A DNA stretch of 64,000 bases from Escherichia phage SD2: sequence record PQ821640; one strand, given 5' to 3'. Positions 5,799 to 7,607 of the stretch are shown piece after piece. The notes beneath the pieces were generated by a model that made no database searches, had not been told where the DNA came from, and was given only the letters and a program-made list of their open reading frames with translations. A program made the translations under genes and the position numbers. Position 1 is the first letter of the stretch. Each line of letters opens with the position of its first letter.

Positions 5799-5864
5799 TT
5801 ATTTTTCCTTTGTTTAAAATGTGTTAAACAATCGCAAATGCTTGTGACGCACTTTGTGATCCCA

Positions 5865-6272
5865 CTAATTAATGTCAGCACTATGATTGTTGAGAGTATA
5901 GGATACTCCATCGCCCAAGTCAACATGAATCTCAACTCCTAACTGTCTTTCTAATGGTAAACGTTTTGAGAATTGATAATTACAAAGTTTACAGTCTAAG
6001 TCAAGCAACTCATGTTTGCTTAAACCTGCAACGATAACTTTGCTTCCCACTGTCCACTCAATACCTTCAAAGTTATCTTTTCTTTTCAAAATGTCAAGTA
6101 AGAAGATGATTTGTTGCCATTCCGTAGACAAGTCTTCTTCATAGAAGGCAGAACAAAAAGTTTTATCATCGTAGAAAGCATACATTATGCCTCCATCTAT
6201 TGTTTCACTTCTAACGTAACGTGTGACCCTCATTATTCCCTCCTGTATGGCTCTGTAACGAGCTAATAGCAC
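5865..6272 (-). CDS. hypothetical protein (135 aa), first gene of leftward block
   Basis: ORF adjacent to divergent AT-rich control region. Confidence 0.45.
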   Translation of the reverse strand: MLLARYRAIQEGIMRVTRYVRSETIDGGIMYAFYDDKTFCSAFYEEDLSTEWQQIIFLLDILKRKDNFEGIEWTVGSKVIVAGLSKHELLDLDCKLCNYQFSKRLPLERQLGVEIHVDLGDGVSYTLNNHSADIN

Positions 6273-6574
6273 CTAAGATATGCAATCACCTTACCTCACA
6301 GTAAAACTCGTTACAATCGTTTTTAGGAGGTTTAGGTTGTACTTAAAAATAATCTAAAAAGGTGTTGACAAACGCAAAAAAGTATGCTACCCTAACCCAC
6401 GAAAAACGCCGAGCGCAGCGAGGGGGTGTTATCTAATCTTGTGATACATGATCTAACAGACAACTGAGTAGTCTACATATAGCACTATGTTATGTCTATA
6501 ATACTAACATACATGCTCTATACTAACAATAGATTATTTATTAATTTTATTATTAATTAAATAATAAATATCTA

Positions 6575-6603
6575 TTGACTTTAGATCTATCTGTATGTAG
6601 AGT
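6575..6603 (+). promoter_or_regulatory. sigma70-like promoter (TTGACT-N17-TAGAGT)
   Basis: -35 and -10 hexamers with 17-nt spacer about 40 nt upstream of the 6643 start. Confidence 0.45.
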
Positions 6604-6642
6604 AGAGAACATAAAGTCCTAACTCAACTAAGGAGATAAAGA

Positions 6643-7536
6643 ATGAAAGTTAGTATTCTGCATGGTGTTGACTGTTATGTTACTGATGTAGACGTTAAAG
6701 TGTTTACATTCTCTGGTGGAGAACAACATGTTCAATTAGATACGAATCTATCAGGTTTCAATCATGCTACAGACAGAATCTTACTCACTTTAGAAGTAAG
6801 ATCTGCTAAAGACTTGATGACTTTGGTTATGACTAAGAATGCATTGGACAATATGCTATATCATAAACCGTATTGTGTTGATTTACTCATGTTGTATGTG
6901 CCGTATGCACGGCAAGACAGAGTGTGTGAGCCTGGGGAAGCATTCGGAGTTAAAGCATTTGCTTCTATAATTAATTCATTAAATTTCTCACGTGTTATCG
7001 TTGCTGATCCGCATAGTGATGTTACTCCAGCAGTGTTTGACAGACTCTGTGTAATACCTCAAGAAGAGATTGCTTACGAAACTTTAAAGTGGAAGTTACG
7101 TATGGAGAATTTTGCTCTTGTTAGCCCTGATGGTGGTGCTCTTAAGAAAATATTTAAATTATCTAAGAAAATGTCTTTAGATGTGTTCTGTGCAGAGAAG
7201 GTTAGAGATACCGCAACAGGTGCTATTGTTCGTACAGACATTTCTGTACAGGATTTCAATAAGCGTAACCTGATGATCGTAGATGATATCTGTGATGGTG
7301 GTAGAACTTTTATCGAATTGGCTAAAGTGCTACGTGCTCGTAACGCAGGTAAGATTGAGCTATATGTTACGCACGGTATCTTTTCTAAAGGTCTTAAAGA
7401 GTTAAGTGAGCACTTTGACTGCATTCATTCTCTTAATGTGTGGGAAGATAACATCCAAGAAGATTCTGGTGTTCTTGTTAAGAATCAGTCAGATTTGCAA
7501 CAACAAATTGTATCTCCATACGTGTGGAATTTTTAA
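6643..7536 (+). CDS. ribose-phosphate pyrophosphokinase-like protein (PRPP synthetase family; possibly ADP-ribose pyrophosphokinase)
   Basis: PRPP-binding loop MIVDDICDGGRT and DPHS motif; AGGAG site before ATG. Confidence 0.75.
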   Translation: MKVSILHGVDCYVTDVDVKVFTFSGGEQHVQLDTNLSGFNHATDRILLTLEVRSAKDLMTLVMTKNALDNMLYHKPYCVDLLMLYVPYARQDRVCEPGEAFGVKAFASIINSLNFSRVIVADPHSDVTPAVFDRLCVIPQEEIAYETLKWKLRMENFALVSPDGGALKKIFKLSKKMSLDVFCAEKVRDTATGAIVRTDISVQDFNKRNLMIVDDICDGGRTFIELAKVLRARNAGKIELYVTHGIFSKGLKELSEHFDCIHSLNVWEDNIQEDSGVLVKNQSDLQQQIVSPYVWNF

Positions 7537-7546
7537 ATAATAAGTG

Positions 7547-7575
7547 TTGACAATAGGGAGTATGCTTAGTAAGAT
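7547..7575 (+). promoter_or_regulatory. sigma70-like promoter (TTGACA-N17-TAAGAT)
   Basis: Consensus -35 with 17-nt spacer; same motif recurs upstream of many units in this window. Confidence 0.5.
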
Positions 7576-7607
7576 ACTCCCACATTAACAAACAAGGAGA
7601 CATAACT

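Follow-up and report, generated by a model that had tools for sequence, protein, structure and literature searches.

The window analysed is the whole 64,000-nucleotide (nt) stretch of Escherichia phage SD2 (PQ821640), and the element under study is the intergenic gap near its position 6,400. Positions 5800-7600 gave 95-99.6% identity to 55 records of Justusliebigvirus (phi92-like, Stephanstirmvirinae, genomes ~147 kilobases (kb)). The gap lies between a leftward gene, the homolog of phi92 gp106A, and a rightward unit that consists of prs (ribose-phosphate pyrophosphokinase), nadV (nicotinamide phosphoribosyltransferase) and 15 tRNA genes (10089-13525) on the same strand as prs and nadV. The first convincing plus-strand terminator of this unit was found at 13639-13657. 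The sequence-only reading had placed the gap at 6273-6642 (370 base pairs (bp)). Its left border, 6273, is a GTG start; annotated relatives use an ATG at 6233. Because the annotated leftward gene starts at this ATG, with a GGAGG ribosome-binding site (RBS), the gap was taken as 6234-6642 (409 bp). One of its predicted promoters, P1, belongs to a module of ~70 nt in which the promoter is followed by an ACGAA linker and by a strand-specific hairpin near the predicted 5' end of the transcript. The features of the locus are as follows.

5865-6233, minus strand: gp106A homolog (phi92 gp106A, phrog_14390), first leftward gene; ATG at 6233, GGAGG RBS at ~6239-6243; from the W22 and phi92 annotations and the PHROG assignment.
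6288-6316, minus strand: PL1, weak leftward promoter candidate; TTGTAA at 6316-6311, 17 nt, TAAGGT at 6293-6288; score 7.3; predicted start ~6281, 48 nt before the gp106A ATG.
6365-6393, plus strand: P1, predicted sigma-70-type promoter with extended -10; TTGACA at 6365-6370, 17 nt, TG at 6385-6386, c, TACCCT at 6388-6393; predicted start ~6400.
6399-6406, plus strand: conserved linker from start site to hairpin, ACGAAAAA, in relatives ACGAAGTT; from alignments.
6407-6425, plus strand: GA hairpin, CGCC-GA-GC-GCA-GC-GA-GGGG, ~7 nt into the predicted transcript.
6450-6479, plus strand: conserved block GATCTAACAGACAACTGAGTAGTCTA, with a Dam site and a short AGAC..GTCT inverted repeat inside.
6470-6498, minus strand: PL2, leftward promoter candidate; TAGACA-17-TAGACT; score 10.5; predicted start ~6463; its -35 is not kept in Citrobacter phage Tr1.
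6501-6529, minus strand: PL3, leftward promoter candidate; TTGTTA-17-TGtTAGTAT; score 10.2; predicted start ~6494; it would face P1 if active.
6528-6573, no strand: AT tract, candidate upstream promoter (UP) element, easy to melt or bend; adjoins the -35 of P2 on its upstream side; contains the palindrome at 6550-6567.
6575-6603, plus strand: P2, predicted rightward promoter; TTGACT-17-TAGAGT; predicted start ~6610, leader 33 nt.
6631-6645, plus strand: start of prs; RBS AGGAG at 6631-6635, ATG at 6643.

Conservation was assessed against five records in which the prs product is only 63-64% identical, from Citrobacter phage Tr1 and three distinct Klebsiella phages (one deposited twice). The first leftward gene of these relatives is a gp106A homolog (48% identity for the Klebsiella relative, 32% for the Citrobacter relative), and the gap is therefore orthologous. 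Most of it has diverged. Three parts are kept: a near-invariant block, the AT tract, and a TTGACY promoter directly after the AT tract, ~25-33 nt ahead of the first rightward start codon. The block reads TTGAC[A/T], 17-18 nt, TATGCTACCCTAA.C.CGAA....GCCGAGCG[A/C]AGCGAGG, and its surroundings diverge; the TATGCTACCCTAA of P1 is invariant in the Citrobacter and Klebsiella relatives. Further downstream, a 26-nt block within 6450-6479 has only two differences from Tr1.

Copies of the block were found outside the gap. A 71-nt query taken from a Klebsiella copy matched phAPEC8-type phages and a second, non-syntenic place in phi92-like genomes, each with the same promoter, linker and GAGCG-N-AGCGAG core. 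A covariance model (R1) was built from 21 distinct module copies. In the window it reported one copy only, at 6359-6430 (66 bits, E = 4.5e-17), the next best match scoring 13.6 bits. The genome of phage EC.P2 (PQ631072; 99.6% identical to the window) contains three copies, and the one of the window is termed site A. Beyond it, EC.P2 was searched except for ~3.6 kb, and the model reported only sites B and C (74.8 and 70 bits).

Site B, EC.P2 ~141,461-141,405 (locus L141, 41461-41405), minus strand: at 141.4 kb, between small same-strand open reading frames (ORFs).
Site C, EC.P2 20,423-20,369 (locus L142), minus strand: weaker -35 TTTACT; opposes both neighbouring ORFs.

Three copies each were also present in phage PD06 and in a Klebsiella-type viral contig. 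E-values of the module were 1e-16 to 1e-19. Wider distribution was examined by pattern scans of bacterial genomes and metagenomes, which yielded further phage-like copies, including loci of the site A type upstream of prs (L260, L263). The module is also present in Klebsiella, Citrobacter and phAPEC8-type phage relatives. Two kinds of scan result were set aside. The 16-nt hairpin core used alone as a query was too unspecific, and many full-pattern hits in GC-rich genomes were due to chance or to unrelated repeats.

In the hairpin, a 4-pair outer stem is followed by a tandem G·A/A·G internal loop and by two G-C pairs, which carry a loop with G as its first base and A as its last. The window copy has a G·G mismatch in the outer stem, and its core GCCGAGCGMAGCGAGG is unique in the window. 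Pairing was counted over 15 distinct copies, and 79% of cells were paired, compared with 31-47% in slid controls. The covariation score of the same 15 copies was 0.362 (slid controls, 0.11-0.17), a value reached by 0 of 500 shuffles. One outer pair was formed in 15 of 15 copies using five pair types, including G-U. Because the covarying pairs include G-U, the hairpin belongs to the sense strand only. In 21 copies no change was seen in the G·A pairs or in the G and A that close the loop. Thermodynamic folding returned the same architecture in five of six short copies. The isolated window segment folded in a shifted register, and the canonical form of the hairpin was present in the fold of the 291-nt window leader. 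Among copies the stem begins 4-13 nt after the -10, which would place it at, or a few nt from, the predicted 5' end (about 0-8 nt). A candidate minus-strand terminator at 6420-6407 was rejected: Tr1 and the Klebsiella relatives lack its T run, and its stem is the complement of the GA hairpin.

The leader beyond the hairpin was compared among copies. Among 8-mers in the 450 nt that follow the modules, GATCTAAC (window 6450-6457) was shared by the most groups, 7 of 23. About 160 kb of phi92-like genome contain it only three times, two of these in module leaders; besides the window, it was seen at L141 41069 (minus strand) and in the leaders of L005, L263, L173, L273 and L139. A leader pairing that would hide the prs start was considered and dropped. 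Segments 6500-6521 and 6636-6657 pair in the minimum-energy fold, but z was only -1.5, and the pairing is absent in Tr1 and the Klebsiella relatives.

Promoters were scored with a simple matrix in which the TG of an extended -10 adds to the score, and a separate consensus scanner was compared with shuffles. The scanner reported 6 promoter-like sites in the gap against 7.7 in shuffles, which is no excess, and the predicted promoters are supported by conserved position, not by consensus match alone. P1 had a matrix score of 15.0, the maximum of the window (top 1e-5 of positions). Its -35 TTGACA matches the consensus at 6 of 6 positions, relatives have TTGACA or TTGACT, and the spacer is 17 or 18 bp among copies. 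P1 resembles extended -10 promoters in the TGn right upstream of the -10 and differs from them in that the -10, TACCCT, is conserved despite being non-consensus. P2 scored 13.2 (top 4e-5 of window positions). Its equivalents are TTGACC-17-TACACT in a Klebsiella relative (L012, 2204-2232; 13.9) and a site in Tr1 (L005, 3231-3259; 12.6). The positions of both P1 and P2 are kept across three lineages, with orthologous sites scoring 12.6-13.9. P1 had been ranked below P2 in the sequence-only reading. The order is reversed here, P1 being the strongest and best-conserved element and a member of a multi-copy family.

The leftward candidates were treated in the same way. PL1 is weak in the window, and its positional equivalents are strong: TTGACA-17-TATCAT in Klebsiella (L012, 1886-1858; 14.5) and TTGACT-17-TACCAT in Citrobacter (L005, 2867-2839; 12.6), each ~36 nt ahead of the gp106A ortholog. 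From these equivalents, PL1 is presumably active in this phage. The arrangement of PL3 is also found in Tr1 (L005, 3173-3145, TTGTAA-17-TGtTAGTAT). The gap had been called a candidate divergent promoter hub. This description gains support by comparison, since the flanks are orthologous, the rightward promoters are kept and a leftward promoter, strong in the relatives and weak in this phage, lies upstream of the gp106A homolog in each lineage. A strong leftward promoter-like site was also noted at 5895-5923 (minus strand, TTGACT-17-TATACT, score 13.8), in the 3' portion of the gp106A homolog; transcription of the downstream leftward genes may start mainly there.

A series of TTGACA-17/18-TGn promoters, often AT-rich upstream, was found between 6 and 19 kb of the window, so predicted host-type early promoters are the rule in this region. 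Strong TTGACA-18-TGn sites are interspersed in the tRNA array, for example at 10422-10451 and 11883-11912. For phage rV5, 33 promoters were predicted, 11 of them with an extended -10 (PMC3606486).

The AT tract was examined next to P2. Positions 6528-6571 are the most AT-rich 44-mer of the 64-kb window (97.7%), and 6533-6571 is its longest pure A/T run (39 nt). The tract is kept in Tr1 and the Klebsiella relatives. It adjoins the TTGACT at 6575, an arrangement that is the same in those relatives, and P2 is, as read from the DNA, an ordinary predicted promoter preceded by an UP-element-like AT-rich tract. The likeness is to UP elements of the rrnB P1 type, P2 having an A/T-only tract at about -38 to -82. 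The tract differs from these in being 44-46 bp long, which is longer than typical, and in its length, which differs by 11-12 nt among isolates. In phages inny, KMB37 and PD06 the tract contains 11-12-nt duplications, each ~one helical turn (inny L002 3356-3381, KMB37 L006 and PD06 L008, aligned to window 6528-6560). A genome end within the gap was considered and rejected: the record of phage ALITA (PP359570) is broken inside the AT tract with ~20 nt missing, which looks like a low-complexity assembly break.

Every feature listed in the sequence-only reading is present in the DNA, including two repeated units, CTATAATACTAACA at 6496-6509 and CTATACTAACAA at 6518-6529, and the palindromic tract TTATTAATTAAATAATAA at 6550-6567. 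The repeated units have the exact 9-mer ATACTAACA in common (6501-6509 and 6520-6528). As a signal, this direct repeat is at chance level. An exact non-overlapping 9-mer repeat arose in 902 of 2000 dinucleotide shuffles of the gap (45%), and at least one arose in 362 of 2000 (18%) with the AT tract excluded. Nor is ATACTAACA a dispersed regulatory word; allowing at most one mismatch, 26 matches were counted in the window against 30 expected, without enrichment. The palindrome fared no better, being 8/9 complementary within a pure A/T run, where by our estimate such symmetry is expected. On the minus strand both ATACTAACA copies read TGTTAGTAT, an extended -10, and this prediction offers a possible meaning for the repeat.

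Taken together, the gap is probably a divergent early control region of a phi92-like phage, with tandem rightward promoters, a leftward promoter and a P1 module that carries a cis-acting hairpin. P1 and P2, as tandem host-type (sigma-70) promoters, would drive prs, nadV and the tRNA array, and the AT tract at 6528-6573 sits where an UP element of P2 would. PL1, back to back with P1, would serve the gp106A homolog, and PL2 and PL3 may contribute. The hairpin would act in cis on the nascent or 5'-terminal RNA and would mark three early transcripts. Recognition of the hairpin by a protein, for example in antitermination or processing, is preferred because the unpaired G and A bases are invariant. 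A simpler alternative is that the hairpin would shield the 5' end against decay. Stem-loops at the 5' end, such as that of the ompA 5' untranslated region, protect mRNA against 5'-end-dependent decay. The module hairpin resembles these stabilisers in lying within about 0-8 nt of the predicted 5' end and differs from them in its invariant G·A pairs and loop G and A, stabilisers needing no invariant unpaired bases.

Several results weigh against the divergent control region with a cis-acting hairpin. Only 3 of the 6 bases in the -10 of P1 are those of the consensus. PL1 is weak, and the Klebsiella lineage has conserved neither PL2 nor PL3. The window hairpin is thermodynamically unremarkable (z = -0.26), with some other copies strong (z = -3.1 and -5.2). 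In the distant copies L152 and L153 the covarying stem starts 4-6 nt after the -10 and would thus lie partly upstream of a canonical start. Site C opposes its neighbouring genes, which a simple mRNA-leader role does not explain. The invariance of TGCTACCCT is circular for copies obtained by pattern search and is independent only for the syntenic and BLAST-found copies. No protein common to the integrative elements described below and the phage was found that would be a candidate hairpin-binding factor. A literature search returned no mapped transcription start, transcript or transcriptome for this phage group; a search for the sequence strings of the module likewise returned no paper.

As first noted, the locus would have been an ordinary divergent promoter gap. 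What is added is a sharply bounded, constrained and multi-copy promoter-hairpin module, through which early gene control can be tested in phi92, phAPEC8 and their relatives; phage-therapy collections use several of these phages.

Likeness of the hairpin to known RNA families was examined with Rfam. Over 361 nt, one sub-threshold match was returned, to GA-cis (RF02987), at 24.2 bits against a gathering score of 34.7 (E = 0.005). Neither tRNAs nor other Rfam families were found in the gap. GA-cis is a candidate structured RNA, reportedly from a 2017 survey of 224 candidate RNAs. Its consensus 3' hairpin, GCCGCcGAgcGaAagcGAgGGGGCG, resembles window 6407-6427 in the outer stem (with a one-base mismatch), the tandem GA, the GC pairs and a GNRA-type loop, and its CCGACGA linker resembles the conserved ACGAA of the module. 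As to the GA-cis 5' helix (GGAG..CUCC, enclosing ~31 nt), the window pairs GGUU with AACC round a 61-nt insertion, and no equivalent was seen in other copies. The differences are that the window match requires this insertion, which contains the promoter itself, that all copies from other phages and from integrative elements fell below the reporting threshold, and that the coupling of the hairpin to a specific promoter is absent from the Rfam model description. With a sub-threshold score, the 61-nt insertion and the other copies unreported, the element was not filed as a GA-cis member. In our view, formed on the sequences, the module hairpin and the GA-cis 3' hairpin are one structural module. 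If the resemblance reflects real relatedness, an orphan GA-cis hairpin would be placed directly behind a promoter.

That the module is a regulatory RNA device, not a plain mRNA promoter, is unlikely on balance. It could act by nut-like factor loading for terminator read-through, or by antisense or face-to-face interference, in which P1 RNA would overlap leftward transcripts from PL2 or PL3 and site C RNA would be antisense to a neighbouring gene. Phage lambda has its nut sites, each with boxA and the boxB hairpin, shortly after the promoters PL and PR. The module is like it in having a short hairpin with a purine-rich, GNRA-like loop a few nt into early transcripts, with a short conserved linker ahead, and in occurring in few copies per genome right after strong early promoters. 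Invariant unpaired bases in a covarying stem are typical of a protein-recognition hairpin, and the fixed position after a strong promoter, three times per genome, agrees with such a device. So does the location of the module behind the integrase in integrative elements, a place at which read-through under certain conditions would be useful. Site C is antisense to its neighbours, and leftward candidates face P1 at 60-95 nt both here and in Tr1. Against this, the linker is without a boxA-like CGCTCTTA, and boxB has no tandem G·A loop. Neither an N-like nor a Q-like protein was identified, no systematic partner search having been made, and no phage protein is shared with the integrative elements. 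With no terminator to overcome between P1 and prs, and with many internal promoters, antitermination is not needed here. The promoters that would face P1 are weakly predicted, and the Klebsiella lineage does not conserve them.

In chromosomes or genome bins of Citrobacter, Buttiauxella and Scandinavium, the module was found as well, in small integrative elements, immediately behind a tyrosine integrase gene and on its strand. Downstream of it lie a stretch of 0.5-1 kb with no clear ORF, an endonuclease VII-like gene and a DUF5906 primase-like gene. Sequence similarity of these elements to the phages does not extend beyond 40-45 nt, a stretch that reaches from the -10 to the end of the hairpin. 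No such element was matched in complete E. coli genomes. One copy is given as an example.

Locus L171, 4148-4091, minus strand: integrative-element copy of Citrobacter sp. OP27 (CP191518); further copies at L204, L215, L169 and L150.

The module is thus common to relatives of virulent 150-kb coliphages and to integrative elements, and the integrase/primase elements are possibly phage satellites. A broader proposal, which is put forward tentatively and is doubtful as it stands, is that the module (TTGAC[A/T], 17-18 nt, TGCTACCCT, linker, GA hairpin) is an undescribed signal that marks immediate-early transcripts of Stephanstirmvirinae. A phage or host factor would read the hairpin, in antitermination, processing or R-loop priming, and the integrase/primase elements of Enterobacterales would have copied the module for expression or read-through upon infection, as satellites that mimic a helper signal. 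If the elements do respond to phages via the module, they would be a new example of a satellite mimicking the signals of its helper.

The gap had also been proposed as a replication origin or a host-factor binding site, which gained no positive support. No iterons or tandem array were found in the gap, only short two-copy repeats at chance level. There is no exact DnaA box in it (one box with one mismatch, 1.1 expected) and no integration host factor (IHF) consensus site. An AT-rich element next to a promoter is present and is equally well explained as an UP element. An origin of the promoter-plus-unwinding-element type (T7 primary origin, T4 oriF/oriG) is improbable. P1 RNA would invade the AT tract ~130 nt downstream and prime synthesis there, the stable hairpin and a non-template G run would favour an R-loop, and three module copies would mean three origins. 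The order of elements fits, a strong conserved promoter being followed by the most AT-rich stretch of the window, and this layout is kept in three lineages. In several copies the hairpin, which forms on a single strand, is followed by a G run. GC skew changes sign at the gap, with its cumulative minimum at 6-7 kb, but this coincides with the switch of gene orientation, where such a change is expected; the authors of the rV5 genome noted the same confound, skew switches coinciding with switches in transcription direction (PMC3606486). The tract differs from the T7 and T4 arrangement in lying ~130 nt from the start site, in adjoining a second promoter exactly as an UP element of P2 would, and in not being repeated at the other two module copies, where none was seen in the first ~110 nt examined after sites B and C. 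Other promoters of the window have smaller AT tracts ahead of them, and the length of this one varies between isolates.

A reading of the region as an unremarkable spacer, in whose AT-rich DNA promoter-like matches arose by chance, agrees with promoter matches no commoner than in shuffles and with chance-level repeats and palindrome, and is very unlikely, being already contradicted by a ~45-nt block near-invariant across lineages whose flanking proteins are only 32-64% identical, by the multi-copy module (E 1e-16 to 1e-19) and by the covarying hairpin.

Further observations were made on the hairpin and its copies. A distant 84-kb viral contig (L153 1-2911, minus strand) has the module ~3 kb upstream of a same-strand array of at least 8 tRNA genes, which echoes the layout of the window. 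Unrelated repeat families of other phyla carry the hairpin tip CGAGCG(N)AGCGAG as their cap, often with TGCTACCCT nearby (e.g. GTCATTCCGAGCGAAGCGAGGAATC), which suggests that the tip fold is intrinsically favourable. Such repeat-capping tips were seen at L183, L203, L214 and L221 (Planctomycetota bin), in Ga0058701 contigs (L227 and others) and at L180, L213, L216 and L234; many hairpin-tip copies lie at contig ends in one metagenome.

Small ORFs of 22-25 amino acids, annotated in the gap in some records, were not retained: the stop at 6355 varies among isolates, and insertions and deletions between lineages disrupt the frames. Four records titled 'Campylobacter phage' (MG065639, MG065645, MG065656 and MG065689; host C. 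jejuni) gave 98% identity to phi92-like coliphages, and their host labels look doubtful. A perfect 9-nt inverted repeat (TGTAACGAG at 6254-6262 and CTCGTTACA at 6307-6315), with arms 44 nt apart, was noted in the presumed 5' leader of the gp106A homolog.

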